Of a stretch of DNA of 64,000 nucleotides, positions 3 through 62,620 are shown piece after piece. The first letter of the stretch is position 1. Each line of letters opens with the position of its first letter. Made by a program: the position numbers and the translations under genes. The notes under the pieces were generated by a model, which saw nothing but the letters and a program-made list of their open reading frames with translations, searched no databases and was not told the DNA's origin. Origin of the DNA: Nannocystis bainbridge (lineage in GTDB: Bacteria; Myxococcota_A; Polyangia; Nannocystales; Nannocystaceae); the NCBI RefSeq assembly GCF_028368995.1, contig NZ_JAQNDL010000001.1, positions 4,128,001 to 4,192,000 of the forward strand, read 5' to 3'.

Positions 3-992
3 GACCCCCACCACGCGCTCGCCGAGCTGCGCCAGCGTCATCTCCCGGGCGCCCGTCGGGCCCTCGAGGGCTTCGTCGCCGGGCTCGCCGGAGATCTGCG
101 CCCGCTGCTCGCCCGCGCGCTCGAGCACCTGCGTGCCATCCTCGTCGTTCACGGCGAAGTCCGCGTCGAGCTCCCGCGCGACCTCCCGCCCCCCGACCCG
201 CAGGCCCTGCTGTCGCTCGACGGTCGCGGCGACTACCTCGACGTCCTGCCCGCTGCCTGGGACATCGCCAGCCCGGCGCTCGCCGACCTGTTCGATCGGT
301 CATGTCTCGAGGGACATCCTGACGGGGCGTCGATCGAGCAGGCGACCTCGTCCTCCGCCGTCCGCGAGATCGTCCCCGCCGACCCGCAGCGAGCCGCGGT
401 CCTGGTGCGCGAGCTCGACGATCACCTGTTCGCGCTCGGCCTGGCCCCGCTGCGGCGGATCTACCTCGCTGCGGGCGAACGCCTCGGGCTCGGCGCCGAC
501 GTCTTCCTGCTCGCCCCCGACGAGCTGGACCACGCGCTCGCCGGCCGCGACCTGCCTGATCTCGCCGCACGCCGGCACCAGCAGCAGTACTTCGTCGCGC
601 TGCGACCACCCCCGGCGCTTTACGACGGCCGGCCCGTGCCGCTCTCGCCGCGACGGCGGTGGAGCGGGATCGCCGTCGGCCCGCCGGTGCGCGGCCGCGT
701 CGCCCTTCGCAGCGACCTCGCCGACCTGCTCGCCCGCCCGCCCGAGCCCGACGCCGTCGTCGTCTTGCCGGCGCTCACCGCTCAGGCCGCGGTCGCCTTG
801 CGAGCGCTCGGCGTGCGCGCCGTCTGCTGCGAGTACGGCGGCGCGCTCAGCCACGCCGCCTTGATGGCCCGCGAGCTCGGCCTGTCGGCGCTGATCGGCT
901 GCGCCGGCTGCAGCGAGCTCGCCGATGGCAGCACCGTCGAGCTCGACACCCGCGCCGGTCGCCTCCGCCTTGCCCCCAAGGACATGTCCTGA
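3..992 (+). CDS. PEP-utilising enzyme mobile (phospho-His swivel) domain protein, 5'-truncated by the window edge
   Basis: The frame of ORF 405..992 stays open back to base 3. The C-terminus has VCCEYGGALSHAALMARELG..VELD..G, the PEP-utilisers mobile-domain signature. Confidence 0.75.
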   Translation, partial: DPHHALAELRQRHLPGARRALEGFVAGLAGDLRPLLARALEHLRAILVVHGEVRVELPRDLPPPDPQALLSLDGRGDYLDVLPAAWDIASPALADLFDRSCLEGHPDGASIEQATSSSAVREIVPADPQRAAVLVRELDDHLFALGLAPLRRIYLAAGERLGLGADVFLLAPDELDHALAGRDLPDLAARRHQQQYFVALRPPPALYDGRPVPLSPRRRWSGIAVGPPVRGRVALRSDLADLLARPPEPDAVVVLPALTAQAAVALRALGVRAVCCEYGGALSHAALMARELGLSALIGCAGCSELADGSTVELDTRAGRLRLAPKDMS

Positions 993-998
993 AGGACA
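971..998. repeat. Two head-to-tail 14-bp palindromic units over the stop codon of the first CDS
   Basis: tgcccccaaggaca|tgtcctgaaggaca. Confidence 0.75.
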
Positions 999-14818: not shown

Positions 14819-14844
14819 CGATCGCCGCGCCAGGAACCTGTCCG

Positions 14845-16575
<1,731 letters not shown>

Positions 16576-19101: not shown

Positions 19102-19689
19102 TCAATCGAGGTCGTCGTCGTCGTCGTCGTCGAGGTCACCGAGCCGGGACAGCACGTCGTCGTCGGGCGGCGGCCCCGAGCCGGGCGCCAGCGACGGCTC
19201 GGTCGGGCTCTCCTCCTCCACGTCGACCTCGTCGTCGATCGCGTCGAGGTCGGCGCTGAGGCGTCGGCTGATCTCCAGCTCCGAGGGCTCGGTCTCTTCG
19301 GACATGTCCTTTAAATCATCCTCGGTGTCGCTGGCAGGTTCCTCCTCCGAGTCGGAGCTGCCCGACGACGCCTCGGCCGTCGCCGCCGTCCCGCCGCTCG
19401 ACCCCGTGCCGCTCGGAGCCGCGGCCGCCGGCGCCGCGACCTGCGTCGTCCGCTTGCTCGCGGTCTTCTTCGCCGCGGTCTTCTTCGCCGCGGTCTTCTT
19501 CGCCGCGGTCTTCTTCACCGCGGTCTTCTTCGCCGCCGGCTTCTTCGCAGCCGGCTTCTTCGCGGCGGCCTTCTTCGCCGTCGTCTTCTTCGCCACGGCC
19601 TTCTTCGCTGCCTTCTTTGGCGCGGCCTTCTTGGCGATCTTCTTGCTCGCGGTCTTCTTCGTTGCCTTCTTCCGATATGACGTAGCCAT
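19102..19689 (-). CDS. Histone H1-like basic protein with a long acidic C-terminal half
   Basis: KKTAA/KKPAA repeats followed by an Asp/Glu-rich tail ending DDDDDDLD; GAGGAG RBS. Confidence 0.8.
   Translation of the reverse strand: MATSYRKKATKKTASKKIAKKAAPKKAAKKAVAKKTTAKKAAAKKPAAKKPAAKKTAVKKTAAKKTAAKKTAAKKTASKRTTQVAAPAAAAPSGTGSSGGTAATAEASSGSSDSEEEPASDTEDDLKDMSEETEPSELEISRRLSADLDAIDDEVDVEEESPTEPSLAPGSGPPPDDDVLSRLGDLDDDDDDDLD
19459..19620. repeat. Coding 15-bp tandem repeat (KK[T/P]AA)
   Basis: cgcggtcttcttcgc-type units repeated. Confidence 0.75.
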
Positions 19690-21977: not shown

Positions 21978-23204
21978 TCAGGGGCTACCCGTCGGCGCCA
22001 TCAGCTCTGATCCAGCGGACGGGTGTCCGAGTGGGAGGCGGCGGCAGTACACACCACGATCCCAGATCGTGTTGTGCGAGGCGACGCAGACGACGCCGCT
22101 GCGCCAGTCGACGGCGAGGCCGCCCGCCTGAACCCGCTCCAATCCCAGCGCAGTCCACGTCGCGCCGCCGTCGTCGCTGGCCCAGATACCCTCTCCCCAG
22201 GACCCGGCGATCACCCGCGACCCATCAGCGGGATCGGGGACCATCACCCGCATGTCCGACACCGGCGGCGTCCTCGGCTCGAACAGCCGACCGGGCGGCG
22301 CGACCCGGAGATCGGTCGACCAGATGTTGCCGTGACGCGCGTAGCGCCAGCCGCCAGCGACGGCCCCGTAGAAATATACGATCGCTTCGGGCGCCGGCTC
22401 CGAGAGCCACTCCCCCGCTTCGCCTTCGCGCGACCACCACGCCGTGCCGAGCGCCACGGCGGTCCCTCCGCCGAGCGCGACGGTGTGGACCCGGCCTTCG
22501 AACTGTTCTTCGGACCATGTCCCTTTGGCCATGTCGAGACGGTGCAGCGCGCCGTCGACGACCGCGAAGAGCTCGCTCGCGCCGACGGCCAGGCTCCTCA
22601 GCTCGCCGGGCGGCCGGCCGAGCGAGCGCCACCGCCCCGTGGCCGGATCGCGCTGATCGAGCCGCGCCGTGCCGCGCGGGGCGGTCCATAGCGTGCCGTC
22701 GGGCGCGGCACAAAACTCCCAGGCGTCCCCGCCAGGGGGGCCGCCGAGGTCACGCCAACCGTCGTCGCCGTGAGCCCACACGTTGCCGCCGCCAGCTTGC
22801 ACGACGAAGCCGTCGACCGACGAGAAGACGATCCGCGGACTATTCCACTCCTCGCTGCCCGCCAGCAAGGTCCACGACGGATCGATCGGACGCGCCCAGG
22901 CGACGACGCCCCAGACGCCGGCGACGAGGTGCGAGAGGATGGCGAGTCGCACGATCACCCATCGCAGCCTCGCTGGCGTCCACGCGAAAAGATCATCCAG
23001 CGCGCCGACGTCGAACCACACGCCGAGGGCCGCGAACAACACGGCCATCACGGGGATCCCCGACAACGCCCACCACGGCGCGATCAACAAGACCGCGCCG
23101 ATGAACGCGAGCATGACGTACGAACCCAGGCGATACCCGCCGACGGCCGCCCGCACGAGGATGCGTCCCACGTCCACGACCCGAGGATGCCACAGCGAGC
23201 CCAT
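21978..23204 (-). CDS. Membrane protein with C-terminal BNR/beta-propeller-like domain
   Basis: Three N-terminal hydrophobic helices, Trp-rich repeats and a SDDGGATW Asp-box. Start uncertain. Confidence 0.6.
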   Translation of the reverse strand: MGSLWHPRVVDVGRILVRAAVGGYRLGSYVMLAFIGAVLLIAPWWALSGIPVMAVLFAALGVWFDVGALDDLFAWTPARLRWVIVRLAILSHLVAGVWGVVAWARPIDPSWTLLAGSEEWNSPRIVFSSVDGFVVQAGGGNVWAHGDDGWRDLGGPPGGDAWEFCAAPDGTLWTAPRGTARLDQRDPATGRWRSLGRPPGELRSLAVGASELFAVVDGALHRLDMAKGTWSEEQFEGRVHTVALGGGTAVALGTAWWSREGEAGEWLSEPAPEAIVYFYGAVAGGWRYARHGNIWSTDLRVAPPGRLFEPRTPPVSDMRVMVPDPADGSRVIAGSWGEGIWASDDGGATWTALGLERVQAGGLAVDWRSGVVCVASHNTIWDRGVYCRRLPLGHPSAGSELMAPTGSP

Positions 23205-24211: not shown

Positions 24212-24281
24212 TGTCCCGAAGGGCATGCTCTCCAGAGCATGTCCTTCAGAACATGTTCGATGGAGCATGCCACTCAGGGCA
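24212..24281. repeat. Five tandem 14-bp units filling the gap between convergent genes
   Basis: tgtcccgaagggca|tgctctccagagca|tgtccttcagaaca|tgttcgatggagca|tgccactcagggca. Confidence 0.9.
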
Positions 24282-32335: not shown

Positions 32336-33283
32336 TGTCGCGGCGGCGCGCTGGTCGTCCTGGCCTGCGGCTGGGCGGCCCTCCGCCTGCAGATGAACGG
32401 CGAGTACAAGGGCGCGACCTGGGCCCAGATCGCCGAGTTCACCGCGCCGCTGCCGTTCGGTCACCGGCCGCTGATGTCGCTGGCGGCCTGGCCGCTGCGG
32501 GCGGCGACGGACTGGCCGCTGGCGCTGGTGTGGGGCGCGCTCGAGGCCGCAGCGGCGCTCGGGCTGTGGCTCGCGCTGCGAGCGGCGCTGCGTCCGCTCG
32601 TGGGTGCCCGTTGGGACATGTTCTTTGCGACATGTTTCTTCGCGCTGCTGGCGTTCCCGCTGCTGCTCAAGCACAAGTGGGCGGTGTTCTACCCGTGGGA
32701 CACGCCGGCGATGGCGTTCACGGCGGCCGGGCTGGCGCTGGTGGCGAGCCGCAGGTTCGCGGCGGCGACCGGGCTGTGCTTCGTGGCGGCGCTGAACCGC
32801 GAGAGCGCGGCGCTGATCCCAGCGGCCGCGCTGGCGCTGCACGTCGGCTTTTCAAGACATGTCCTTCGGGACATCCGAGCAGTGACGGGCCCGGTCCTGG
32901 CGATGACGGCCGCGGTGGTGGCGGCGCGCGCGGCGGTGATGCTGGCGCTGCCCGACAACCTCGGGGCGGCGCTGCACTTCGCCATCGGCAAGAACACGCC
33001 GCGTTGGCTGCACAACCTCGAGTGGCTGGCGGAGCCGGTGCACTGGCTGTGGCTGCCGATGTACTTCGCGCTGCTGCCGGTGGCGTGGGCGCTGCTGTGG
33101 AGGTGGATCTCCGCCGACCACCGCCGCCTCGCGCTGGTCGCCCTGGCGTGGTTCCTCGGCCTGATGCTGGTCGCCAACATCTACGAGCCGCGCGTCTACG
33201 GCGAGCTGCTCGTGCTCCTCTACGTCCCCGTCGCGGCCGCGGCGTGCCGCTGGCTGCGCGCTGATACACTGGGCGCGGCATGA
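32321..33283 (+). CDS. Polytopic membrane protein (possibly GT-C-like)
   Basis: 3' part of ORF 30590..33283, with about 8-9 hydrophobic helices, YPWD, NRES and YEPR motifs, and an ATGA overlap with the next gene. Start uncertain. Confidence 0.65.
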   Translation: MLRRACRGGALVVLACGWAALRLQMNGEYKGATWAQIAEFTAPLPFGHRPLMSLAAWPLRAATDWPLALVWGALEAAAALGLWLALRAALRPLVGARWDMFFATCFFALLAFPLLLKHKWAVFYPWDTPAMAFTAAGLALVASRRFAAATGLCFVAALNRESAALIPAAALALHVGFSRHVLRDIRAVTGPVLAMTAAVVAARAAVMLALPDNLGAALHFAIGKNTPRWLHNLEWLAEPVHWLWLPMYFALLPVAWALLWRWISADHRRLALVALAWFLGLMLVANIYEPRVYGELLVLLYVPVAAAACRWLRADTLGAA

Positions 33284-34113: not shown

Positions 34114-35076
34114 TCAGGACATGTCCTTGAGGACACGTCGCAGGAGGTCCGGCGCGCCGTGGGCGGTGAGGCGGCCCGAGGCGTCGATCTGCAGCTCGAC
34201 GTGATCGCGGCCGCGCCACAGCGCCGGGTCGGCGTGGCGCGGGGTGAGGTGGACGATCTGCTGGTTGGTCGAGCCGATCCACCGGCGGCCCGCGGCGGGT
34301 TCGCGGCGGCGGGCGTCGAAGCGGCCGTCGACGAGGGTGTCGGCGGCGTCGAGCAGGGCGCGCGCCCCGGGCATGGCCTGCAGCTCGGCGTGGGTGCGGC
34401 CGGTGAACACGAGGGTGCCGAGGCCGAGCTCGCGGGCGGCCCGGCACAGCGCGGCGACGGCCTCGGGTTGCTCGCTCGGTTCGCCGCCCAGCACGGTGAG
34501 GCCGGTGATCGCGTGGAGGTCGCGAGCGGCGCGCAGCTCGTCGACGAGCGTGGTGATGGCGAGGGCTTCGCCGCCGTCGCGGGCGAACAGCTCGGGGTTG
34601 CAGCAGCCGGGGCAGCGCAGGGTGCAGCCCTGTACCCAAACGGCGAACCGCAGGCCGGGGCCCTCGGCCTCGGTGCAGGCGACCCTGGCGGCGACCCGGA
34701 GCGTCACCGGCGAGGCGAGCGAGTCCCATGTCCCGACGGGCCTCGCGTTCGCGGCGAGGGCCTGCGGGTCCGTCGCAGAATCACATGTCCCTGCGGACAG
34801 CTTCCTCGCGGTTCGCCGCGGCGCCGTCGCGGAATCACATGTCCCTGCGGACAGCTTCCTCGCGGTTCGCCGCGGCGTCTCGACTTGCCCCGAATCCGTC
34901 GCGGAATCACATGTCCCTGCGGACATGTTTTTCGCTTCGAGCCGCGGCGTCTCGCCGTGAGCCGAGCCCGTCGCCGAATCACATGTCCCTGCGGACATGT
35001 CGCTCGCGTCGGGCCCCGTCGCAGCGGCTCGCTCGCTCGGCTCGACCTGCGCGCGGTCGCCTGGCTTTCCGCTCAT
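34114..35076 (-). CDS. Radical SAM protein, NrdG/organic-radical-activase-like, with a repetitive N-terminal extension
   Basis: EGPG.RFAVWVQGCTLRCPGCCNP (CxxxCxxC), GGEP, DGRFD and GSTNQ. The ATG at 35076 lies 1 nt after the upstream stop. Confidence 0.82.
   Translation of the reverse strand: MSGKPGDRAQVEPSERAAATGPDASDMSAGTCDSATGSAHGETPRLEAKNMSAGTCDSATDSGQVETPRRTARKLSAGTCDSATAPRRTARKLSAGTCDSATDPQALAANARPVGTWDSLASPVTLRVAARVACTEAEGPGLRFAVWVQGCTLRCPGCCNPELFARDGGEALAITTLVDELRAARDLHAITGLTVLGGEPSEQPEAVAALCRAARELGLGTLVFTGRTHAELQAMPGARALLDAADTLVDGRFDARRREPAAGRRWIGSTNQQIVHLTPRHADPALWRGRDHVELQIDASGRLTAHGAPDLLRRVLKDMS
34770..34997. repeat. Four copies of a 30-bp repeat (ccgtcgcggaatcacatgtccctgcggaca) at 54/72/72-bp spacing
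   Basis: The core tgtccctgcggaca lies at 34786, 34840, 34912 and 34984. The intervening sequences resemble one another. Confidence 0.9.
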
Positions 35077-37833: not shown

Positions 37834-37903
37834 TGTCCGTTCAGACCTGTTCTTTCGTACCTTGCGTTTCAGACCTGTCGCAATGCACATGTCCCTGCGA
37901 ACA
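37834..37903. repeat. Five degenerate tandem 14-bp units running into the next start codon
   Basis: tgtccgttcagacc|tgttctttcgtacc|ttgcgtttcagacc|tgtcgcaatgcaca|tgtccctgcgaaca. Confidence 0.75.
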
Positions 37904-45871: not shown

Positions 45872-46513
45872 TCATGCGGCGGCGCTCCGCACGGCGGCCA
45901 GCAGCGTCGTCGCGCGCTCGCCGATGGCTGTGAGATCTCCGGCTTGTACGAGCGCCGGGGGGAACAGCGGCGTGGTGAAGCCCACCCCTGCCGCGCCGGC
46001 TTGCAGCACCGGAGCGGCGTTCGCGGCGTCGACCCCGTTGGTCGGCACCAGGTTCAGGGCCGGCATCGGCCCCAGCACCGCGCGCACGAACGCGGCGACG
46101 TCGCCGGGCGCGGGGAACAACTTTTGCGCCGCCGCCCCGGCCGTGTGCGCGCGCCACAGCTCCGTCGGCGTGAAGCAGCCGGGCACCGCCGCCGCCCCGA
46201 GCGCGCGCGCGCAGGCCACCACGCGCTCGTCCAGCACCGGCGACACCAGGAACCGGGCCCCAGCCCGGACCGCCTCGCCGGCGGTCTCAGGGTCCATCAC
46301 CGTGCCCGCGCCGACCGTCAGGCGGGCGTCACGGGCGAACTCGGCGACGAGGCTCATCGCCCCGGGCGTCGTCACCGTGAACTCGAGCACCCGGAAGCCG
46401 GCCTCGACGGCCGCCCACATCGCCGCGGCGGCGTGGTCGCGGCTGGTCGCGCGCATGATGGCGACCGCGCGGTGCTGGGCGAGCGCCGCGGTGAAGGCTG
46501 TCTCCGAGGACAT
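45872..46513 (-). CDS. eda: KDPG/KHG aldolase
   Basis: AI.R, LEFT.TTP, VGAGTV, GA.FLVSP, PG..TPTE, KLFPA and PT.GV motifs. Confidence 0.88.
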   Translation of the reverse strand: MSSETAFTAALAQHRAVAIMRATSRDHAAAAMWAAVEAGFRVLEFTVTTPGAMSLVAEFARDARLTVGAGTVMDPETAGEAVRAGARFLVSPVLDERVVACARALGAAAVPGCFTPTELWRAHTAGAAAQKLFPAPGDVAAFVRAVLGPMPALNLVPTNGVDAANAAPVLQAGAAGVGFTTPLFPPALVQAGDLTAIGERATTLLAAVRSAAA

Positions 46514-46728
46514 GCTGGGGCCATCGTAGGCCAACGGCCGCGCGGGCCGCAAGTTCGCCGCCGGACCGGGGCCGGGGCCGACCCGAGGCGTCCGCGGAGG
46601 CCGCCTCGGCGGCAGCGGCGGTCACGCAGGGTCTGCGGGCTCGCGTTCCGGGCGATCGGCACATTCGGGTTCGCCGACCAGCGGCGCGCCCGGGCTGCGG
46701 GTACCGAGCGGGCGGCGATCGTCGCACA

Positions 46729-46928
46729 TGGCCTTTTGTTCATGTCCGGGACGCGTCGTCGCGGGCGTCTGCTCCCCGCGCTGCTCGAGGCCGGCGGCGC
46801 CTCGCTCGACATGTCCCCACGGACATGTCCATGCCGCGCGAGTGACATGTCCCTTCGGACAGCCGACCTCCTGTGAGTCCCGGCATGTCCCGGAGGACAG
46901 GTTCATCCCGAGGCTGTCCCGAAGGACC
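46729..46928. repeat. Dense cluster of 14-bp palindromic units
   Basis: tgtccccacggaca (46812), tgtcccttcggaca (46848), tgtcccggaggaca (46886), tgtcccgaaggacc (46915). Confidence 0.85.
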
Positions 46929-46931
46929 GCG

Positions 46932-47753
46932 TCAGCCGAAGATGGGCAGCATGCGCTCTTCGTAGAGCGAGTCGAGCATCGACTGCATCGTCTGCTCGAC
47001 CCGCTCGTAGACGGTCGGCGCGCGCTCGGCCGCCTCGACCTCGCAGCAGGCGTTGCCGTCGTGCGCCAGCGGGTCGCCGACCTGGAACGTGATCTTCGAC
47101 GGCAGCGGCAGGTAGGGCAGCGCGCAGGTCGGGCCGAGCATCAGGCCCCAGGGGGCGGCGAGGATGATCGGCAGGGAGCTGATCCTCGCCCACTTCTGGG
47201 TCTGCATCAGGCGCGCGAGCCGGTGGCCGCGGGTCAGCACGATCATCGTCTCGTGGCTGCCGGCGCTGACGACCGGGACGATCGGCACACCTGCCCGAAG
47301 AGCCAGGCGCGCGAAGCCCTGGCGCTGGGCCAGGACGATCCGCCGGCGGTCGCGGAACGGGCGCATCGACTCGACGTCGCCGCCCGGGAACACCAGGACC
47401 TTGTGGCCCGCCTCGAGCAGCGAGCGGGCCTGGCCCTTGCGGGCGCGGATGATGCCGACCGACTCGAGCATCTGCGCCACCCGCTTGACGCGGAACAGGA
47501 TGTCGTGGGCGAGCACGAAGACCGGCTGGTCGTAGCCGCGCTGGCGGTAGTACTCGACCAGGAACAGGCCATCGACCGGATTGAGGCCGCCGTTGTGGTT
47601 GGCGACGATCAGCGCCGGACCCTCGGGCATCTTGTCGACCCCGCGCACCTCGCAGCGGTGGTAGCGGGCCAGCATGTTGAAGCCGGCCACCGCCGACCGC
47701 AGCGCCGAACGGCACACGCCTGCGAGAACGCCGGAGGGTGCCGCTGATTCCAC
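46932..47753 (-). CDS. Lysophospholipid/DGAT-type acyltransferase (PlsC superfamily)
   Basis: ANHNGG..P.D, VFPGG, GFARLAL..GVPIVPV and LPLPSKI motifs. Confidence 0.85.
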   Translation of the reverse strand: MESAAPSGVLAGVCRSALRSAVAGFNMLARYHRCEVRGVDKMPEGPALIVANHNGGLNPVDGLFLVEYYRQRGYDQPVFVLAHDILFRVKRVAQMLESVGIIRARKGQARSLLEAGHKVLVFPGGDVESMRPFRDRRRIVLAQRQGFARLALRAGVPIVPVVSAGSHETMIVLTRGHRLARLMQTQKWARISSLPIILAAPWGLMLGPTCALPYLPLPSKITFQVGDPLAHDGNACCEVEAAERAPTVYERVEQTMQSMLDSLYEERMLPIFG

Positions 47754-47830
47754 GGGAGGGGCGGCACGCAGCGGTGGGGGGGGCGTTCCCTCAGCCTGCG
47801 GCGCGAAGCCCTCGAGCGGGTATGGTCTTG

Positions 47831-48793
47831 CTAGGCGGATGCTCGAAAAGTGTCATGACCTGCGGCACACGTCGAGCCGCGCTGTGAAACATCCTGCGCA
47901 GGCAAGCGCCGCGCGAAATCAAGCACACGTTCGGTCAACGCCGTCGGTTGCTCCATGAACCCGATGTGTCCGAAATCGGTGAATTCGGCCATTTCGGCGT
48001 GCGCGGGCAGGTTCTGGGCGAAGAAGCGGTAGTGCGCGCGCGGCAAGATCCGCTCCTCGCGCCCCCACACGAAGAGCACGGGCATGTGGAGGCTCGCCAG
48101 CTCGGCTGGCGTGAGCAGCACGGAGGGGGAGATCTCTCCGAGCAGCTGGCGCAGCTGGGGATGGTTGAAGCGCCGGCGGAGGTTGTGCGCGATCGGGTGA
48201 CGCATGAGGGGCGGCACCTTGGCGAACACGTCGTCGACGAATTCGAGCGCCTGGCCGTAGGAGTCGATGCGGAAGCGGTCGAGGAACGCCGCGTGCTGGG
48301 CCGGGGGCAGCGGCGCGCCGCCGGGCGAGACCAGCGCCAGACCGCGGACCATGTGCGGACGGGCGAGCGCGTAGCGGATCGCCACCAGGCCGCCCATCGA
48401 GTTGCCGAGGATGATCGCCGGCTGGTCGAGGACCTTGTCGAGCGTCTCGACCACCGCGTCGAGCAGCACCGTGGGCGCGTCGCCCGACCGCAGCGGCGCC
48501 GAGAAGCCGTGGCCCGGCATGTCGGGGGCGACGACCCGGCGGACGTGCGGCTGGAAGCGCTTGAGCAGCCCGGCGTAACACACCGCGTGGGCGGCGAGCC
48601 CGTGCAGCACGACGATCGGCGGCAGACCGCCGCTGCCCGCCCCGTCCAGCACGTGAATGTCGCCAGCGCCGGTGGCCACCTGGCGGCTCTTCAGGCCGGA
48701 GACGTTGAGGACACGGCGGGCGAGTCGCTCGGGCAGGGTCAGCATGTGTTCAGGAGACTTCAGACCCCGGGGAAATTCCACAAAGCGGCGCAT
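47831..48793 (-). CDS. Alpha/beta hydrolase
   Basis: VLHG, PDMPGHGFS, GNSMGG nucleophile elbow and C-terminal GH. Confidence 0.85.
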   Translation of the reverse strand: MRRFVEFPRGLKSPEHMLTLPERLARRVLNVSGLKSRQVATGAGDIHVLDGAGSGGLPPIVVLHGLAAHAVCYAGLLKRFQPHVRRVVAPDMPGHGFSAPLRSGDAPTVLLDAVVETLDKVLDQPAIILGNSMGGLVAIRYALARPHMVRGLALVSPGGAPLPPAQHAAFLDRFRIDSYGQALEFVDDVFAKVPPLMRHPIAHNLRRRFNHPQLRQLLGEISPSVLLTPAELASLHMPVLFVWGREERILPRAHYRFFAQNLPAHAEMAEFTDFGHIGFMEQPTALTERVLDFARRLPAQDVSQRGSTCAAGHDTFRASA

Positions 48794-49130
48794 TCAGACC
48801 GTGCTGGGGATCACAGGACCGGCTGCGCACCCCCCTGCGCACGCGCGCAGGCGGTCGCGCTCCGCCCGACCCCGACGCAACGGCCTGTGATCTGTCCCCG
48901 AGGACAGATGAACCATGGATCGGCGAGCGCGCTCGCGACCGCCGCGCAGGGGCCGCCCGCGTCGCCAGGACCGAGAGGCGGTCGTCCCGCCTCGAAGATC
49001 GCGCCGACGAGGAGCAGCCGCGAGCGCAGAGGCGCCGGTCGGCCCTCGCCTTCGAGATGTCTCTTCGGACATGTCCTCCGGGACTGCTTGACGGCCTCGT
49101 CGCCGCCCGCGTAGAACCGGCGCCCGCGGC

Positions 49131-50294
49131 ATGAAGCTCGTCGACGTGACCGAGTTCTACTCCCAGCGCGGCGGCGGGGTGCGCACGCACCTGACGGAGA
49201 AGGCCGCCGCGGCCGCGCGTCGCGGGCACGAGCACCTGGTCTTCGCGCCTGGTCCGCGCCACGCCGCCGACCCGGGCGTGCGCTACATCCCCGGCCCCTC
49301 GCTGCCGTACGACCCGACCTATCACCTGCTGTGGCGGATCGGCGCGGCCCGGCGGATGCTGCGGGCCGAGCGGCCCGACGTGCTCGAGATCCACTCGCCG
49401 TACGTCGCCGCGATCGCGGCGCTGGGGCTGCGGCCGGGCGAGTTCGGCGTGCGCACCTTCGTCTGGCACTCCGACTTCATCGACACCTACCTGCGCGGCG
49501 GGCTCGAGCGGCGCCTCGCGCTGCTGTTCCGCGGCCGCGCCGCGCGGGCCGCAGATCGCGTCGTCGAGCCGCTGTGGGCCCACGTGCGCCGGATCGCCGA
49601 CGCCTGCGCCATGACCGTCGTCGGCTCGCGCTGGCAGCGGCACAAGCTCGAGCAGCACGGCGTCGCCCGCGTCGAGCACATCCCGTTCGGCATCGAGCCC
49701 GGGCGCTTCGCCCCCGAGCGGCGCAGCGAGGCCCGCCGCCAGGAGCTGCTGGCCGGGCGCGCGGGGCCGCTGATCGTCGCCATCGGCAGGTTCGCCGTCG
49801 AGAAGCGCTGGGACGTGGTCGTCGACGCCTACGCCCGGCTCGCCGAGCGCCACCCCGGGGCGGTGCTGGCGGTGTTCGGCGACGGTCCCGAGAGACATGT
49901 CTTCAAGGACAGGCTCGGCGAGCGCGCCGACGTCCGCGTCCTCGGGTTCGAGCGCGACCGCGACCGCCTGGCGGTGACGCTCGCCAGCGGCGACCTGCTG
50001 CTCCACGGCTGCCCGTTCGAGACCTTCGGCCTCGGGGTCGCCGAGGCGATCGCCAGCGGCCTGCCGGTGGTGGTGCCCGACGCCGGCGGCGCGTCCGAGC
50101 AGGCGCCCCCCGAGAGCGCGGCGCAGTACTCCGCCGGAGACGTGGACGCCTGCGTGGCCGCCGCGGAGGCGCTGCTGGCCGTCGACCCGGCCGAGCTGCG
50201 GGCCCGCGCCGCCACGGCGGCCCGCCGGGTCCCCAGCGTCGTCGATCACTTCGACGCCCTGTTCGGCCGCTACCGCGAGCTGCTCGCGCGTTGA
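49131..50294 (+). CDS. GT4 glycosyltransferase (alpha-1,6-mannosyltransferase-like)
   Basis: DVTEFYS..GGGVRT, GRF..EK, GDGPER and ETFGL..AEA.ASGLPVV motifs. Confidence 0.88.
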   Translation: MKLVDVTEFYSQRGGGVRTHLTEKAAAAARRGHEHLVFAPGPRHAADPGVRYIPGPSLPYDPTYHLLWRIGAARRMLRAERPDVLEIHSPYVAAIAALGLRPGEFGVRTFVWHSDFIDTYLRGGLERRLALLFRGRAARAADRVVEPLWAHVRRIADACAMTVVGSRWQRHKLEQHGVARVEHIPFGIEPGRFAPERRSEARRQELLAGRAGPLIVAIGRFAVEKRWDVVVDAYARLAERHPGAVLAVFGDGPERHVFKDRLGERADVRVLGFERDRDRLAVTLASGDLLLHGCPFETFGLGVAEAIASGLPVVVPDAGGASEQAPPESAAQYSAGDVDACVAAAEALLAVDPAELRARAATAARRVPSVVDHFDALFGRYRELLAR

Positions 50295-50329
50295 TTGCGA
50301 GCGCCCGCCCGGCGTGACAGCATCCGCGC

Positions 50330-51082
50330 GTGCCGGTCCACGTATCGATCCACGACGTCACCCCCGCCTGGGCCGCGGAGGTCGACGCTGCCTTGCATGC
50401 GTGCGCCGAGGTCGGCATCAAGCCTGGCCTTTTGGTCATCCCGAATTATCACGGCGCCTGGCCGCTCGACGACCACCCCGACTACGCCGAGCGCCTGCGC
50501 GGGTGGCAGGCCGCGGGCCACGAGATCTTCCTCCACGGCTACTACCACCTGACCGGCGCCGGTCCGCGCACCGCGGCTGCGACCGGTCACGCGGCGCCTC
50601 GCGGGCTGCGGCGGCTGTGGGCCCAGAAGGTCGTGTCGGGCGGCGAGGCCGAGTTCAGCGACGTGGGCGAGGCCGAGGCGCGTCGCCGCCTCGACGACGG
50701 CGAGGCCGTGCTGCGCCGCGCCGGCCTCGAGCAGCTCGACGGCTTCATCGCCCCCGCCTGGTCGATGCCGCCGTGGATGCACGCCGTCCTGCGCGAACGC
50801 GGCTACCGCTACACCGAAGACCACCTGCACGTGTACGACCCGGCCACGGGCACCCGGCGCGCCAGCCTGGTCCTCAACTACGCCAGCCGCACGCCGGCGC
50901 GGCTGTGGTCGAGCCTCCTTTATTGCCGGCTCGCCCGTCCGGCCCGGCGATTTTTACCCACGCGCGTGGCGATCCACCCGGCCGACATGCGCCACGCCGT
51001 GCTGCGCAAGGAGATCCACGACCTCCTCCGCTGGGCCGTCGGCGACGCCGTCGTGCCCGCGCGCGCCCTCGTCGAGGCCTGA
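50330..51082 (+). CDS. DUF2334 / polysaccharide deacetylase-fold protein
   Basis: VSIHDVTP, LLVIPNYHG, EIFLHGYYH, EAEF, GFIAPAW and R.AIHP.D motifs. Confidence 0.82.
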   Translation: MPVHVSIHDVTPAWAAEVDAALHACAEVGIKPGLLVIPNYHGAWPLDDHPDYAERLRGWQAAGHEIFLHGYYHLTGAGPRTAAATGHAAPRGLRRLWAQKVVSGGEAEFSDVGEAEARRRLDDGEAVLRRAGLEQLDGFIAPAWSMPPWMHAVLRERGYRYTEDHLHVYDPATGTRRASLVLNYASRTPARLWSSLLYCRLARPARRFLPTRVAIHPADMRHAVLRKEIHDLLRWAVGDAVVPARALVEA

Positions 51083-51085
51083 GCC

Positions 51086-52075
51086 ATGGCCCGGATCAGC
51101 CTCGTCGTGCACGGCCGCGGTCGCGGTCACGCCAGCCGGGCCGTCGCCTGCGCCCACGCCCTGCGCGACGCCGGTCACGCCCTCCACGTGTTCGCCGGCG
51201 GCGACGCGGAACATGCCCTCAAGGACATGTCCGAAGTGACATCCATCCCGATCGTCCGGCCCGGCCTCGGCGCCGCGACGGGGTGGTTGCGGCGGCTGGC
51301 GAGCGACGCCGAGCGGTTCGCCGCCGCGGCGCCGGAGTGCATCGTCAGCGACGGCGATCAGCCCAGCCTCGTGGTCGCGCGCCGGCGCCGGATCGGCAGC
51401 GTCGCCGTCGATCACGGCCTCGCCCTCACCCACGGCCGCCTGCCGATCCGCCCGCCCGCGTGGATGCGGCTGTACGAGCGGCTCAACAACGCCCCGCTGG
51501 CGCTGGGCGGCCGCCTCGTCGCCGTCCATTTCCTGCCGTTCGTGGCCACCGATTCGCGCGTCGCCGTCGCCCGGCCCGACCTGCGCGACGACCTGCGCGG
51601 GCCCGTCACGCGCGAGGGCTTCTTGCTGGCCTACTTCCGCGACGACAACGGCCGCGACGCCCTCGCCCTCGCCCTCGCCGCTGGCGCCGATATCGTCTGC
51701 TTCGGCGAGCGCGACCCGCAGCTGCCCGGCTTGCGGTTTCATCGCTCGGACCGCGCCGGCTTCGCCGACCACCTGCGGCGCTGCGACGGCGTCATCACCT
51801 CGGCCGGCAGCAACGTGCTGGCCGAGTGCGTCATGCTGCGCAAGCCGGCCCTGGCGCTGCACCACCGCGGCGACGCCGAGCAGGCCCTCAACGCCCGGCT
51901 CGCCGAGCACGCCGGCGTCGCGCTCGGGCGCAGCTTCGAGGACCTGCGGGCGCGGGACGTCGGTGAGTTTTTGACCCGGGTGCGCGGCGGTGAGTTCGCC
52001 GCGCCCGACCTCATGACCGCCATGCCGCCGGTGTCCGAGGTGGTCGTCAGCGCCGTCGCGGCGCTCCTGGTATAA
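51086..52075 (+). CDS. GT-B glycosyltransferase (MJ1255/GT28-C-like)
   Basis: V.G.GRGHASR, IVSD, ITSAG...L.E....KP and EQ.LNA motifs. Confidence 0.8.
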   Translation: MARISLVVHGRGRGHASRAVACAHALRDAGHALHVFAGGDAEHALKDMSEVTSIPIVRPGLGAATGWLRRLASDAERFAAAAPECIVSDGDQPSLVVARRRRIGSVAVDHGLALTHGRLPIRPPAWMRLYERLNNAPLALGGRLVAVHFLPFVATDSRVAVARPDLRDDLRGPVTREGFLLAYFRDDNGRDALALALAAGADIVCFGERDPQLPGLRFHRSDRAGFADHLRRCDGVITSAGSNVLAECVMLRKPALALHHRGDAEQALNARLAEHAGVALGRSFEDLRARDVGEFLTRVRGGEFAAPDLMTAMPPVSEVVVSAVAALLV

Positions 52076-52086
52076 GGCCCACGCGC

Positions 52087-54759
52087 ATGTCCGACCTGCC
52101 CCGCGCCACCGGCCTCGCCGCGCTCGTCGTGCGCCGCCCGCTGGCGATCGTCGTCATCGCGCTGATCCTCGGCGTGCTCGGTTACTTCGGCACGCGTCGG
52201 CTCGGCATCGACCAGGAGCTGCGCGCGCTGCTGCCCGACGACGCGCCCAGCGTCACGCGCCTCGACGCCGTCAGCGATCGGCTCGGCAATCAGTCCGACC
52301 TCTACGTCACGATCCGCGGCCCCTCGCGCGAGGCCAACCTCGCGCTCGGGGCCGCGATCGCCGACGACCTCGCCGGGCGCGACGACATCCGCTACGTCCT
52401 GTTCCGCCGCGACCCCGCGTTCTTCCGCGATCACCTGCTGTTCTACGCCGGGCTGCAGGACCTGCTCGACCTGCGGCAGCGGGTCATCGACGCGATCCAG
52501 ACCCGCGTCCGCCGCGAGCTCAGCATGTTCCCCGAGGATCGGGCCGCGGGCGCCGGCGACGACGATCTCGACCTCGACGAGAAGGCCCTGCGCGAGCGCT
52601 ACGGCCTCGACAGTGAACCCTCGGAGTACTTCGAGCGCGACGAGGGCCGGCTGGTCGTCGTGCGCGCGCGGCCGACCCGGGCCAACACCGACATCTCGTT
52701 CGCGCGCGGGCTCTCGCGCGAGCTCAAGGCCGCGATCGACGGCCTCGAACCCAGGCGCTACCACCCCGACATCGAGGTCACGATCGACGGCAGCTACGCC
52801 GAGCACACCGCTCAGGCCAGCAGCCTCGAGCGCGACATCATCTCCGGCACCGCGTTCGCGTTCGGCCTGCTCCTGCTGGTGGTGGCGATCTACTTCCGCG
52901 GCCTGCGGGCGGTGCCGCTGGTGCTCGTGCCGCTGCTGGTCGCCGTGGTCACGACGCTGGCGATCGGCTGGGTCTTCTACCGCGAGCTCAACCTCGTCAG
53001 CGCCTTCATCTTCGCCGTCACGCTCGGCCTCGGCATCGACTTCGGCACCCACATCCTCTCGCGTTACCGCGACGAGCGGCGCCGCGGCCTCGATCAGCTC
53101 CAGGCGATCTCGACCACCATCGCCACCACCGGCGTCTCGACCGCCGGCGGCGCGATGAGCACCGCGTTCGCGTTCCTGTTCCTGGTCCTGGCCGAGTTCC
53201 GCGGCTTCTCGCAGTTCGGGGTGATCGGCAGCCTCGGCATCATGATCGCCTTTGTCGCCGCGCTGGTGGTCCTGCCCGCGCTGGTGCTGGTGCTCGACCG
53301 CGTGGTCCCCTGGCGCGTGCCGGCGCCGACGGCCAGCACGGCCCCGGGCGCCCGGTACATCCCACGCCGGTTCCCCTGGCTGGCTCTCGGGACAGTTTTG
53401 GTGTGCCTCGGCGGCGGCGTCTACGGCGTCACCCTGCTGCCGCAGATCGGCTTCGAATACAACCTCAGCAAGCTGGGTCCGCCCGACCGCACCAGCCCCG
53501 AGGAGCAGCAGCGGGCCAACCAGTACCGCGACGCCGTCGGCCGCACGCAGTCGAGCGACCCGACGATCGTGCTGACCGACAACCTCGCCCACACCGAGGC
53601 CGTCAACCGCCAGCTGCAAGCGATCCTCGACCTCGAGCCGGAGCAGATCGCCGAGATCACGGGCCTGGAGCCGTACGCCGACACCCCGCGCAAGCCGAAG
53701 CCCGAGCCGAAGCCCGCGCCGGCGCCGAAGCCCGCCGCGGACGAGGACGACGAGGACGACGAAGCAATCGAGCCCGACGATGCGAAGTTCGTCCGCCTCG
53801 CCGAGCTCGCGCGCGCCCACGGCACGGTCGACCCTGCGGTGCGCGAGCAGCTGAAGCAGTACCCGCCCGAGCGCCTGCGCGAGATGGACGACCTGCTGAG
53901 CAGCGTGCTGTCGATCTACACCTTCGTGCCCGAGCTGCAGGCCGAGAAGCTCGAGATCATCCGCGACATCCGCACGCGCATTGACAACAAGCGCGGCTCG
54001 TTCTCCGCCGCCGAGCTCGAGAAGTTGAAGTCGTGGGAGCGCTACCTGCAGGTCGACGCGCCGATCGGCCCGGAAGACCTGCCGCAGTGGGTCAAGGTCC
54101 AGTTCACCGACATGCACGGCGAGCTCGGGCGGTTCGTCGCCTGCTGGCAGCGCGGGCCCAAGTCCGAGTACGCCCACGCCAAGCGGATCCACGACGCCTT
54201 CGACACCATCGAGACGCCGCTGGGCCCCGCGCCCGCGGTCGGCTCGCACTTCGTCGTGCCCGAGGTCGTCGACGCCATCCGCGGCGACGGCCCGCTGGTG
54301 ATGACCGCCGTGTTCGGCGTGCTGACCGTCACCGCGCTGGTGATGTTCCGCAGCGTCGCCCACGCGGCGATCGTGCTCGCGACCGTCGGCTCGGCGCTCG
54401 GCTGGCTGGCCGGGGTGTTCGTGGCGATGGGCTGGACGCTCAACCTGTTCAACCTGGTCGCGTTGCCGCTGCTCGTCGGCATGGGCCAGGACGACTCGCT
54501 GCACATCATCCACCGCTTCCGCGAGGAGGGCCCCGGCCGGCTGGCGCACACCATGCGCGAGACCGGCGGCGCCGTGGCCCTCACCACCGTCACCACCGTC
54601 ATCGGCTTCTCGAGCATGCTGTTCGTCGACCACATCGGCGTGCGCTCGCTCGGCTGGACCGCCGTCGTCGGCATGACCTTCTGCCTGCTCGCGTCGCTCA
54701 CGCTCGTGCCCGCTTGCCTGCGCCTCGGCGAGTGGTCGCGGGTCCGGCGCGGCGAATGA
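52087..54759 (+). CDS. MMPL/RND-family lipid transporter
   Basis: Two TM blocks with GLGIDFG.H...RY.DER and GMGQDD..H..HRFREE, plus large periplasmic loops. Confidence 0.88.
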   Translation: MSDLPRATGLAALVVRRPLAIVVIALILGVLGYFGTRRLGIDQELRALLPDDAPSVTRLDAVSDRLGNQSDLYVTIRGPSREANLALGAAIADDLAGRDDIRYVLFRRDPAFFRDHLLFYAGLQDLLDLRQRVIDAIQTRVRRELSMFPEDRAAGAGDDDLDLDEKALRERYGLDSEPSEYFERDEGRLVVVRARPTRANTDISFARGLSRELKAAIDGLEPRRYHPDIEVTIDGSYAEHTAQASSLERDIISGTAFAFGLLLLVVAIYFRGLRAVPLVLVPLLVAVVTTLAIGWVFYRELNLVSAFIFAVTLGLGIDFGTHILSRYRDERRRGLDQLQAISTTIATTGVSTAGGAMSTAFAFLFLVLAEFRGFSQFGVIGSLGIMIAFVAALVVLPALVLVLDRVVPWRVPAPTASTAPGARYIPRRFPWLALGTVLVCLGGGVYGVTLLPQIGFEYNLSKLGPPDRTSPEEQQRANQYRDAVGRTQSSDPTIVLTDNLAHTEAVNRQLQAILDLEPEQIAEITGLEPYADTPRKPKPEPKPAPAPKPAADEDDEDDEAIEPDDAKFVRLAELARAHGTVDPAVREQLKQYPPERLREMDDLLSSVLSIYTFVPELQAEKLEIIRDIRTRIDNKRGSFSAAELEKLKSWERYLQVDAPIGPEDLPQWVKVQFTDMHGELGRFVACWQRGPKSEYAHAKRIHDAFDTIETPLGPAPAVGSHFVVPEVVDAIRGDGPLVMTAVFGVLTVTALVMFRSVAHAAIVLATVGSALGWLAGVFVAMGWTLNLFNLVALPLLVGMGQDDSLHIIHRFREEGPGRLAHTMRETGGAVALTTVTTVIGFSSMLFVDHIGVRSLGWTAVVGMTFCLLASLTLVPACLRLGEWSRVRRGE

Positions 54760-54935
54760 GAGGTCCCTTTCGACATGTCCCAAACGCCAGATGACCGCCC
54801 GGCGCCGCGCCCCGCCGTCCCGCCGGCCGCCGCCGCACCGGCCGCGCGTCCGCGCGAAGCGCTGCATGATTTGGTCGCGCGCGCAAGCGCGCACACTGGC
54901 CCGCTGTGGGGCAAAGCCGCTACATTGAGGGCAGC

Positions 54936-56096: not shown

Positions 56097-56098
56097 GC

Positions 56099-56265
56099 TG
56101 TCCCGAAGGACAGCTTATTCGATGATTGGCTGTCTCGCGGGACAGTCAGCTTCTCCCGAGCGACGCCCCTGCTGTCCTGAGGGACATGTGAGGTCCAGAA
56201 CCCTCCCTGAGATGTCCCGAGAGACAGCCCTCCGCGGAGCGGCGCCCCTGCTGTCCTGAACGACA
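56099..56265. repeat. Five spaced 14-bp palindromic units plus a 23-bp direct repeat
   Basis: Units at 56099, 56131, 56173, 56213 and 56252; gagcgRcgcccctgctgtcctga at 56158-56180 and 56237-56259. Confidence 0.85.
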
Positions 56266-56445: not shown

Positions 56446-57852
56446 GTGACGAGCACCGAGCCCAGCACTCGCGCCACGCCGCCGCCGTGGCTGCAGCGTG
56501 TGGCCATCCTCAACGACTACGCGCGGGTCCCCTACGCCAACGGCTCCTCGTTCGCCTCGCAGATGCTGCGGCGCGAGTTCGCCGCGCGCGGGCAGGAGGT
56601 CACCGTCATCGGCCCGAACGACCCGCACGCGCGGCCCGACCAGCTGCCGCCGCGGCGGATCTTGCTGCCCTCGCTGCCGCTGCGCAATCACCCGGGGGTG
56701 TACATGCCGTTCCCCTCGGCGCGCAGCTTCCGGGCCGCGGCCGCGGCCAAATTCGACTTCGTGCTCAGCCAGAGCAACCACGATCTGTGCGACCTCGGCG
56801 TGTGGCTGCGGTTCAAGCACGACGTGCCGCTGCTGTGCGTCAACACCCTGCACCTGCCGAGCGTCTACGGCGTGGTCCTGTCCGATCGCATGCGCAAGAA
56901 CCGGACCATCAACGGCCTGTTCCAGGACCGCTTGATGCCGTGGCTCGAGCATCACTCCGCCGAGGTCTACAACCTCGGCGACGGCCTCATCGTCCTCGCC
57001 GAGGGCCTCGTCGACTACTGGCGGGAGCGCGGCGTGACCGTGCCGATCCACGTGATCCCGCGGGCCGTCGCCCCGCACATCTTCGACGCCCCGGTCGGCG
57101 ACGACCCGTTCCCCGCCAGCGCGCCCGCCGGTCAGCGGCTCCTCGTGGTCTGTCGTCACTCGCGCGAGAAGGGCGTCGAGCGGCTGCTCAAGCTGTTCGC
57201 CCGCCACGTCGCCCCCGCGTGCCCGCAGGCGACGCTGACCCTCGTCGGCGACGGCCCCGACCACGACGCCTTCCGCGCCCTCGCCGAGCGCCTCGGACTC
57301 GGGGGCCGCGCGCAGTTCGTCGGCGAGGTGCCCGTCACCGAGGTCCCGAACTACTACCGGCACGCCGACCTGTTCGTCTACACATCGCTGTCCGAGACCT
57401 ACGGCCAGGTCGTCAGCGAGGCGATGTGGTGCGGGCTCGCGGCGGTGGCGTTCGCCGACGGCATGGGCGTGTCGCAGCAGATCCGCGACGGCCGCGACGG
57501 CTGGCTCGTCGAGCCCGGGCCCGACGCCGACGCCGCCGACGCCGAGTTCGGCGCCCGCGTGGTCGCCCTGCTGCGCGACGAGGCTGCCCTTCGGGGCATG
57601 TCCGAAGAGGCAGCCCGGCACGCCCGCGAGCGCGCCGACCCGGACCGCAGCATCGCCCGCTACTACGCCGCCTTCGAGGCCGCCCGCGAGCACTGCCGCA
57701 GCACCGCCGCCGAGCGCCGGACCCAGGGCCTGAACACGCCGCGGCTGATCTCCCGCTGGCTCGCCGTCCACGGGGCCGTCGTCGGCCTCAGCGCCCTGCG
57801 CCCGCCCGCCCTGCTCAACCGCAACGGCGGCGAGCAGCCGGCGTGGAGCTAG
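56446..57852 (+). CDS. GT4 glycosyltransferase (diacylglycerol glycosyltransferase-like)
   Basis: ND......NG, R...EK, VGDGPD, AD.FVY.S.SETYG.V..EAM..G motifs. Start uncertain (56377 or 56446). Confidence 0.85.
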   Translation: MTSTEPSTRATPPPWLQRVAILNDYARVPYANGSSFASQMLRREFAARGQEVTVIGPNDPHARPDQLPPRRILLPSLPLRNHPGVYMPFPSARSFRAAAAAKFDFVLSQSNHDLCDLGVWLRFKHDVPLLCVNTLHLPSVYGVVLSDRMRKNRTINGLFQDRLMPWLEHHSAEVYNLGDGLIVLAEGLVDYWRERGVTVPIHVIPRAVAPHIFDAPVGDDPFPASAPAGQRLLVVCRHSREKGVERLLKLFARHVAPACPQATLTLVGDGPDHDAFRALAERLGLGGRAQFVGEVPVTEVPNYYRHADLFVYTSLSETYGQVVSEAMWCGLAAVAFADGMGVSQQIRDGRDGWLVEPGPDADAADAEFGARVVALLRDEAALRGMSEEAARHARERADPDRSIARYYAAFEAAREHCRSTAAERRTQGLNTPRLISRWLAVHGAVVGLSALRPPALLNRNGGEQPAWS

Positions 57853-57953: not shown

Positions 57954-57958
57954 GCCGC

Positions 57959-62050: not shown

Positions 62051-62620
62051 ATGCGCGATCTGTTCCTGAGCCTGTCCGTTTGCACATGTCTTTTCGCACA
62101 TGTCTCCGGGTGCAGCTCGCCACCGGCCGCCCCGGCCGCCCCGGCGAAGCCCGCCGCCAAGCCCGCCGCGTCCGCCGCTGACGCGCCGGTCGGCTACGAC
62201 CTGCGGCGCCTGCGGCCGCGCGACGAGGAGACGCTCGCCGCCATGTTCGAGCGCCTGCGCGCCCAGGCGCTGGCCGACGGCAAGCGCGTGGCCGTGCTGT
62301 TCAGCGCCGACTGGTGCGAGCCCTGCCGCGAGCTCGAGCAGGAGCTCGGCAACCGCCACCCGGCCGCGGAGATCGGCGATGTCCGGTTCCTCGAGCTCAA
62401 GGAGGAGGACTGGAGCGCGGCGGCCCGGATGGACGAGTTCAACGAGCTGCGCCGCCGCTGGGTCGGTCAGACCGGCTCGTACCCGCTGCTGATGCTGCTC
62501 GACGCCGAGGGCAATTCGAGCGAGGAGATGAAGCAGGCGATCGAGCGCCTCGAGGCTGCGAAGATCGAGCCGACGCTGGCGCACTGGCTGGCCGATACGC
62601 GGCCGAAGAGCGCGACCTAG
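62051..62620 (+). CDS. Exported thioredoxin-like (CxxC) protein
   Basis: Signal/lipoprotein-like N-terminus, FSADWCEPC and YP...LLD.EG. Confidence 0.75.
   Translation: MRDLFLSLSVCTCLFAHVSGCSSPPAAPAAPAKPAAKPAASAADAPVGYDLRRLRPRDEETLAAMFERLRAQALADGKRVAVLFSADWCEPCRELEQELGNRHPAAEIGDVRFLELKEEDWSAAARMDEFNELRRRWVGQTGSYPLLMLLDAEGNSSEEMKQAIERLEAAKIEPTLAHWLADTRPKSAT

Follow-up and report, generated by a model that had tools for sequence, protein, structure and literature searches.

Two glycosyltransferase genes of the myxobacterium Nannocystis bainbridge, recognized as such by Pfam, each harbour two abutting copies of a short palindromic DNA word inside their reading frames: a GT4 gene at 49131-50294, with its pair at 49884..49911, and a gene at 51086-52075, with its pair at 51214..51241. 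This locus raises the question of whether such copies are by-products of protein sequence and codon usage or whether the genome maintains a DNA word within its genes at the expense of the code, and in which form, DNA or RNA, that word is read. The window, by which we mean the whole analysed stretch of 64,000 nucleotides, corresponds to C1:4128001-4192000 of an 11.05-Mb genome with 71.5% GC (G000); positions given without a contig label refer to the window. An earlier interpretation made from the letters alone, hereafter the sequence-only reading, had claimed that the motif lies within coding sequence and appears to shape the peptides, and that selection on it overrides codon preference, which would favour a function in DNA over that of an RNA terminator. 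We favour, with moderate confidence, the view that the in-gene copies are true members of a genome-wide family, that they are selected, and that a putative reader recognizes them as double-stranded DNA.

The unit is a 14-bp interrupted palindrome, TGTCC-N4-GGACA, whose N4 centre favours YYRR (Y, pyrimidine; R, purine) and is richer in A/T than the genome. Units abut without spacers in an exact 14-bp register, the junction between stacked units being GGACATGTCC, and the longest head-to-tail arrays found genome-wide comprise 8 units. There are 1987 exact units in the genome, compared with 0 to 25 copies of six control palindromes of the same build. Units with one mismatch number 4258 and those with two mismatches 7530, against predictions of ~170 and ~3360, respectively, by an order-3 Markov model (a 2-Mb simulation scaled up to genome size). 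With up to two mismatches allowed, the real units in the genome number roughly 10,000. Perfect units rarely succeed one another (16 cases among 1987), and the neighbours of a perfect unit typically carry 2-4 mismatches. Arrays consist of imperfect units, and perfect units tend to be solitary.

The exact double unit was detected in 9 of 10 genomes of the same genus, in none of the 8 other genera searched within the family and in none of 12 further families from the class. The close relatives that we compared, Nannocystis punicea, N. pusilla, N. exedens and Nannocystis sp., harbour about 0.49 units per kb at ≤1 mismatch. Loci of other genera with the same GC content (231 kb) yielded a single exact unit and 0.048 units per kb at ≤1 mismatch, which is the chance level. 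The word is a Nannocystis-wide family, restricted to the genus among the genomes searched, and our literature search found no published description of the TGTCC-N4-GGACA word.

Inside genes, the word is far more frequent than the encoded proteins require. In 7049 confident genes (8.69 Mb), we counted 745 exact units; two kinds of shuffles with three replicates each gave 14-24 (~19) when synonymous codons were shuffled within each gene, and 2-4 (~3) when codon order was shuffled. Exact in-gene copies are about 40 times commoner than protein sequence and codon usage predict. At ≤1 mismatch, the 2388 in-gene units compare with about 425 and about 228 in the synonymous and codon-order shuffles, respectively. 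That the former exceeds the latter indicates that word-compatible peptides are themselves enriched. All three phases contribute to the excess, with 288, 954 and 1146 units in phases 0, 1 and 2 against about 35, 34 and 355 after synonymous shuffling. At least one unit is present in 1473 of the 7049 genes, and in-gene arrays cluster, 69 genes having at least four against 13 expected. Longer genes also have denser in-gene arrays, with 0.38 per kb at gene lengths of 2.4-4.8 kb compared with 0.09 per kb below 600 bp. Within the window alone the excess is modest: 10 in-gene units occur at ≤1 mismatch, whereas 40 synonymous shuffles averaged 4.0 and never exceeded 8, and 42 units occur at ≤2 mismatches compared with 32.7.

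The in-gene copies are also conserved at silent sites. Using blastn, we aligned 285 kb of the genome to that of relative G003 (mean identity 87%) and 121 kb to that of relative G005, which is collinear for only about 122 kb. The test sets comprised the in-gene units with 30-nt flanks that were coding and aligned, i.e. 75 units for G003 and 26 for G005. In G003, third codon positions are 92.4% identical in the stems (n=277) and 75.7% in the flanks (n=1360; p=2e-11). The contrast is greater for third positions occupied by A or T, which correspond to rare codons, with 93.8% conserved in stems (76/81) and 51.8% in flanks (87/168; p=4e-12). The G005 comparison gave 89.8% for stems versus 80.0% for flanks (p=0.02), and 92.6% versus 44.3% at A/T positions. 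Furthermore, 55 of 80 in-gene units still have ≤1 mismatch in G003, when 19.9 ± 3.6 would be retained under neutrality (maximum of 33 in 2000 simulations), and 18 of 31 are retained in G005 against a neutral expectation of 10.4. These data show that in-gene copies are maintained by purifying selection, or by an equivalent drive, acting on the nucleotide sequence itself.

The price of the word is poorer codon adaptation and changed peptides. The geometric-mean relative adaptiveness of codons is 0.32 in units, 0.63 in their flanks and 0.76 in a genome sample, and units contain 790 of the 3203 occurrences of the rare codon ACA (24.7%). The preferred phases are the cheapest ones, xxT GTC CNN NNG GAC, which codes for V-[P/L]-x-D, and xTG TCC NNN NGG ACA; phase 2, with its preferred codons, is used about four times as often as phase 0, for which TGT and GGA are required. 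In the least codon-adapted genes, in-gene density is about 0.37-0.40 per kb; in the top decile of codon adaptation it has dropped fourfold, to 0.097 per kb. The claim that selection overrides codon preference is thus correct in part: the ~40-fold excess and the retention of rare codons bear it out, but the phase bias and the fall in density with codon adaptation make the override partial.

The imprint on proteins is equally measurable, since peptides specified by the word are 2-12 times over-represented relative to within-protein shuffles. C-P-x-G-[HQ] occurs 132 times against 10.6, with 98 of the 132 occurrences encoded by units; the corresponding values are 552 against 279 for [MLV]-S-x-[RGW]-T, 401 against 138 for D-M-S and 138 against 20 for [KRE]DMS. 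In the most loaded genes, the word is embedded in repeats of low complexity whose translation is AVPADS or PVPEDS. Two long proteins, encoded at C2:2066054-2070511 and C5:658301-661411, harbour 21 and 16 units, respectively, in such repeats, all but one or two of them in phase 2 and coding for AVPADS- or PVPEDS-type peptides, and the word recurs within apparently unrelated disordered repeats. A general preference of in-gene units for disordered segments was considered and discarded: although the most loaded genes have disordered repeats, the overall shift in composition is small (24.8% versus 22.6% of P, E, S, Q and K).

How the word entered genes can be addressed by comparing orthologous and homologous loci, a check that the sequence-only reading had proposed. 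None of the 11 in-gene arrays of the window shows a unit-sized indel relative to five relatives (81-94% DNA identity). The GT4 pair (2 + 1 mismatches) is specified by GAG AGA CAT GTC within ...GPERHVFKDR..., using the rare codons AGA and CAT; it aligns without indels in 5/5 close relatives, and the HV and KD residues are found in 0/20 homologues of other genera. The pair at 51214..51241 (1 + 1 mismatches), coding for HALKDMSEVT, likewise aligns without indels in 5/5 relatives, with stem variants present, and DMS is found in 0/18 homologues of other genera. Neither focal site shows a change in length relative to these other-genus homologues (30-45% protein identity). A three-unit array (42 bp) is the only insert size that is neutral for the reading frame, and three-unit arrays are not enriched in genes (43/2362 versus 205/3038 intergenic). 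In addition, the flanks of units are 85% and 89% identical at the first and second codon positions, respectively, against a gene background of about 91% and 93%, which indicates that in-gene units lie in faster-evolving protein segments. The in-gene copies thus arose through point substitutions rather than insertions, in stretches of protein that are poorly conserved and tolerant of change.

The family as a whole is densest directly behind stop codons. Among the 6245 units with ≤1 mismatch, 3581 are intergenic, 2515 (~40%) are in genes and 149 straddle a gene boundary, which corresponds to a density 6.8 times higher outside genes. Convergent intergenic regions are the richest, with 4.64 units per kb and a unit present in 738 of 1336 cases, followed by co-directional (1.72 per kb) and divergent ones (0.59 per kb); the density within genes is 0.275 per kb. 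Relative to the first base of the stop codon, unit starts peak genome-wide at +0, +14, +28, +42 and +56, and again at +5 and +19/20; at the stop-codon registers, TGA stands in for the TGT or the GGA of the unit. The stop codon occupies unit positions 1-3 in 62 genes and positions 10-12 (offset +5) in 88 genes. In some cases it lies within the N4 centre, and arrays continue in phase at +14, +28, +42 and +56. Within genes, units are distributed evenly across deciles of gene length with a slight excess at the edges, so that a gene-end preference of in-gene copies was rejected. The possibility that in-gene copies fill gaps between intergenic ones was likewise rejected, as they lie a median of 1815 bp from the closest array outside genes, much like random coding positions (1719 bp; p=0.23).

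This placement calls for consideration of an RNA element, i.e. a short hairpin or a factor-bound double-stranded RNA motif that would end or protect transcripts at gene ends like the 'Tuberculosis Rho-independent terminator' (TRIT) of Mycobacterium. In-gene copies would then be tolerated as ribosomes melt them, or would be internal processing or pause sites. The abundance of units between convergent genes and their stop-codon registers speak for this explanation, as does the fact that a single unit folds as RNA at -4.9 to -5.8 kcal/mol. The mycobacterial element, too, is described as a palindrome that is confined to one genus and overlaps stop codons (PMC3152330). Nevertheless, the stem is only 5 bp long, and its paired positions show weak or no covariation. 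Positions G2 and C13 are nearly invariant, and conservation is highest, not lowest, at the outermost pair: between G000 and G003 only about 2% change is seen in the outer TG..CA, compared with 24-33% in the N4 centre, the most variable part. Between these two genomes, pairs changed on both sides number 8 against 8.3 expected, just 3 of them still pair, and one-sided changes mostly break pairing (56 mismatches versus 19 G-U). The flanks of solitary units show no complementarity beyond base frequencies, and centre positions 6 and 9 no covariation towards pairing. When co-directional intergenic units are oriented by the upstream gene, TTCG and CGAA loops occur 88 times each, and G-U (323) barely exceeds A-C (277). 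The flank profile of units has no T-run that would correspond to a U-tract, a terminator scan of window positions 46000-64000 returned 2 sites against 3.4 expected and none at units, and a scan of the whole window with Rfam at gathering thresholds gave no matches. Finally, thousands of copies are maintained by selection deep within genes, where a terminator would be harmful. The lack of covariation, compensatory change, strand asymmetry and U-tract favours a symmetric, sequence-specific reader over a hairpin terminator, and we regard an RNA element as unlikely, while the strongest of the alternatives. The preference of the sequence-only reading for DNA over an RNA terminator hence finds some support in these separate tests of pairing, strand asymmetry and U-tract, with double-stranded DNA as the probable substrate. 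The argument that it had drawn from in-gene selection does not hold on its own, because an mRNA element could equally be selected in genes.

The other explanations are less probable still. A tag for DNA uptake or self-recognition, of the type of the uptake signal sequence (USS) of Haemophilus and the DNA uptake sequence (DUS) of Neisseria, would spread by biased uptake and recombination drive, and not through any advantage to the gene in which it lies. The frequency of about one per kb, the restriction to a single genus, the use of preferred-codon phases at poorly conserved residues and the 2-12-fold inflation of peptides all fit, and the in-gene pattern agrees with that reported by Findlay and Redfield for uptake sequences (PMC2817400). 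Known uptake sequences are, however, asymmetric 9-12-mers rather than palindromes in 14-bp arrays of up to 8 units, and good copies here are much denser outside genes; a literature search at the level of titles found no report of sequence-specific uptake in myxobacteria. We thus consider a tag of this kind improbable. We give even less credence to biased mutation or repair tied to a methyltransferase or to very-short-patch repair, with the junction ACATGT/CATG as the modified site, although the junction CATG and the outer TG..CA are the most conserved positions. The cyanobacterial highly iterated palindrome HIP1 is reportedly linked to orphan methyltransferases, and a methyltransferase or repair origin is said to have been suggested for it at one time. 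Orthologous sites are kept well above the neutral expectation here, and for HIP1 Xu et al. likewise argue for selection rather than replenishment (PMC5861425). Repair bias also leaves the gene-end preference and the 14-bp arrays unexplained. Insertion of a tiny mobile element, akin to repetitive extragenic palindromes (REPs) or miniature inverted-repeat transposable elements, or transposon footprints would account for intergenic arrays that differ in unit number among relatives and are often unalignable. The TG..CA ends of the unit also resemble transposon termini. With inserts of 14 or 28 bp, however, the reading frame would shift, and the lack of unit-sized indels in the in-gene arrays and at the two focal sites, the scarcity of three-unit arrays in genes and the failure to find a Y1 transposase of the REP-associated tyrosine transposase (RAYT) type in the genome, when control genomes gave matches, make this origin very hard to credit. 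The least probable proposal is that the in-gene matches arise by chance or as a by-product of amino-acid and codon usage. It draws on the weakness of some of the named pairs (2-3 mismatches), on the small excess in the window at ≤2 mismatches and on a pair at 26620 that tracks the conserved peptide WLKxQ.P. Chance is refuted for the family at large by the 745 exact in-gene units against about 19 and by the near absence of exact units from other genera of the same GC content; it stands for individual weak sites only.

Several points weigh against a selected family read as double-stranded DNA. Selection and a selection-like drive (biased uptake, conversion or repair) are distinguishable only with polymorphism data, and the conservation test is based on two relatives and 75 + 26 units. 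Genes were delimited with a crude GC3/codon-score caller made for this analysis (7943 genes, 82.7% coding), not taken from a curated annotation. Units are 8 times denser between convergent than between divergent genes, in register with stop codons, and this gene-end bias is equally expected of an RNA 3'-end signal. A few transition-type compensated pairs are mildly enriched, with T-A at pair 4/11 found 38 times where 9.5 would be expected. For at least one weak pair, at 26620, a conserved peptide is the better explanation. Lastly, the reader itself is putative.

If the word is nonetheless read as DNA, its reader would be a putative two-fold symmetric, sequence-specific protein that binds side by side and cooperatively in the 14-bp register. 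The rarity of adjacent perfect units suits cooperative arrays of weak sites. In-gene copies would share the genome-wide role of the intergenic ones. More tentatively, we envisage a genome-wide system built on a single 14-bp palindromic word, with a putative symmetric reader binding singly or in phased arrays, whose demands would have reshaped about a fifth of the genes at both silent and non-silent positions.

Among the closest described systems, the tandem met-boxes of MetJ are abutting, imperfect palindromes bound cooperatively by neighbouring dimers. They are restricted to a few operator sites in promoters, unlike the genome-wide family described here, which lies behind and inside genes. 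REPs and bacterial interspersed mosaic elements of enterobacteria and pseudomonads are short palindromes present in variable numbers at 3' ends and between convergent genes, like our word. REPs differ in lying outside genes, in their link to RAYT transposases and in their greater length, being imperfect palindromes of ~20-40 nt, whereas the unit has 14 bp and 2515 of its 6245 good copies are in genes. The RAYT/Y1 transposase family PF01797 was not found in G000, which is 90% complete, and 6 of 14 control genomes gave matches.

USS (Pasteurellaceae) and DUS (Neisseria) are, like our word, short and genus-specific, with about one copy per kb both in and between genes. Frame choice by codon preference, location at poorly conserved residues and inflated tripeptides are reported for uptake sequences (PMC2817400), and all three features were found here. 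USS and DUS are asymmetric words of 9-12 bases, usually single or in inverted pairs, unlike a palindrome stacked in a 14-bp register, concentrated behind stop codons and denser outside genes. HIP1 (GCGATCGC) resembles the word as a hyper-abundant palindrome located in and between genes. Its sites are conserved between genomes beyond neutral expectation, as are those of the word, and a chromosome-level role has been proposed for it (PMC5861425). HIP1 belongs to a different phylum and is a contiguous 8-mer that includes methyltransferase sites (GATC, CGATCG), unlike a 14-bp word with a free 4-bp centre; arrays and gene-end bias are unmentioned in the abstract on HIP1 (PMC5861425). TRIT is conserved in sequence, bidirectional by virtue of its palindromy, genus-restricted and located at stop codons, partly within coding sequence, all features shared with the word, but it is described as comprising 147 copies with a conserved structure at gene ends only (PMC3152330). 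The word has ~10,000 copies, no structural covariation and thousands of members deep in genes; it shares gene-end placement with intrinsic terminators and TRIT, and has neither their conserved pairing nor their U-tract. The word thus lacks defining features of each of these classes. Its palindromic form and phased arrays exclude it from the uptake sequences, and it is distinct from HIP1 in not being a contiguous 8-mer with methylation sites. The absence of conserved pairing and of a U-tract excludes it from terminators and TRIT, and its length of 14 bp, its largely in-gene location and the failure to find a RAYT exclude it from the REPs.

The family offers a clear, measurable case of a short DNA word that vies with the genetic code, outside cyanobacteria and competent pathogens, and that creates recurring peptides such as KDMS*, AVPADS and CPxG[HQ]. 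Should a genome-wide system of this kind exist, its tasks might include marking the ends of genes, controlling supercoiling or the structure of the chromosome, or labelling self DNA. A defined 14-bp bait present in thousands of copies provides a direct handle for finding the reader. Codon optimization or refactoring of the genes of Nannocystis, a producer of natural products, would silently erase such sites.

Every site named in the sequence-only reading was found at its position and in the context described, with strengths ranging from 0 mismatches (32860, 985 and 34122) to 2-3 mismatches (57585, 19291, 22504 and the third unit of 62073). In addition to the two focal pairs, the coding sites comprise a weak pair at 57585..57612 (2 + 2 mismatches), in the GT4 gene at 56446-57852, which codes for LRGMSEE and whose left unit is highly variable among relatives. 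A search of 40 genomes of the family at E≤1e-40 returned no orthologue of this gene from beyond the genus. Another weak pair, at 19291..19318 (2 + 3 mismatches), codes for DLKDMSEE in the gene at 19102-19689 (minus strand), whose match to Pfam HC2 falls below the cut-off. The pair at 22504..22531 (3 + 1 mismatches) belongs to the gene at 21978-23177 (minus strand). The gene at 32321-33283 harbours both a pair at 32605..32632 (1 + 2 mismatches), conserved in 5/5 relatives and coding for WDMFFATC, and an exact unit at 32860..32873, coding for RHVLRDI. Three in-phase units with 1, 2 and 3 mismatches at 62073..62114 code for SLSVCTCLFAHVSGC in the N-terminal region of a thioredoxin-like gene (62051-62620). 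The pair at 26620, which the sequence-only reading had not named, was discarded as a chance match to the WLKxQ.P peptide, which is conserved in word-less genera.

Other sites overlap gene boundaries. Two unrelated proteins do end in KDMS*, as had been noticed: a pair at 971..998 (1 + 0 mismatches) spans the stop codon of a gene ending at 992, with TGA in the N4 centre, and an exact unit at 34122..34135 lies at the 3' end of a radical-SAM gene (34114-34707, minus strand). Three start codons are also overlapped. The pair at 14839..14866 (1 + 2 mismatches), nearly invariant in 5/5 relatives, covers the start of a carboxyl-transferase gene (14860-16575), and that at 37876..37903 (2 + 1 mismatches) covers the start of the gene at 37883-38395 (MHMSLRT). 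A unit with 1 mismatch at 46499..46512 overlaps the probable true start codon (MSSET) of a KDPG-aldolase gene (45872-46534, minus strand). Intergenic sites include units at 24212..24253 beside the stop of the gene at 24274-25410, which correspond to the site earlier given as 24268, and a cluster of four units at 46812..46928 between the genes at 45872-46534 and 46932-47690. A cluster of five units at 56099..56265, directly after the stop of the gene at 54906-56096, is unalignable among relatives.

At the scale of the genome, unit density varies from 4 to 55 per 50-kb bin and tracks local GC content (r about 0.5-0.66). A 200-kb stretch of lower GC at C1:1100000-1300000 contains just 4-6 units per 50 kb and may be a gene-cluster island or recently acquired DNA. 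Immediately upstream of the window, a variable segment of ~62 kb (C1:4004053-4065938) cannot be aligned to the collinear regions of G003 and G005 and holds somewhat fewer units than its flanks.

The centre of the unit evolves faster than its surroundings, with 58% identity against an intergenic background of 80%. In the orthologues of the units at 24212, 57585 and 34122, the centre and inner stem are often A/T-rich in relatives, e.g. TGTTTTAAAGAACA and TGCTCTAAAAAACA, which is striking in a 71% GC genome. The intergenic region after the gene at 34114-34707 contains a larger tandem repeat (34770-35009) with periods of 54 and 72 bp in 2.0 and 2.6 copies. Each copy bears an identical unit, TGTCCCTGCGGACA, preceded by GAATCACA; among the relatives, only G010 aligned across these units, and poorly, the other four being unaligned. 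Lastly, only 35 bp (50295-50329) separate the GT4 gene from the DUF2334 gene, compared with about 85-600 bp in five relatives, and intergenic length in the GT4/DUF2334 gene cluster is very fluid.

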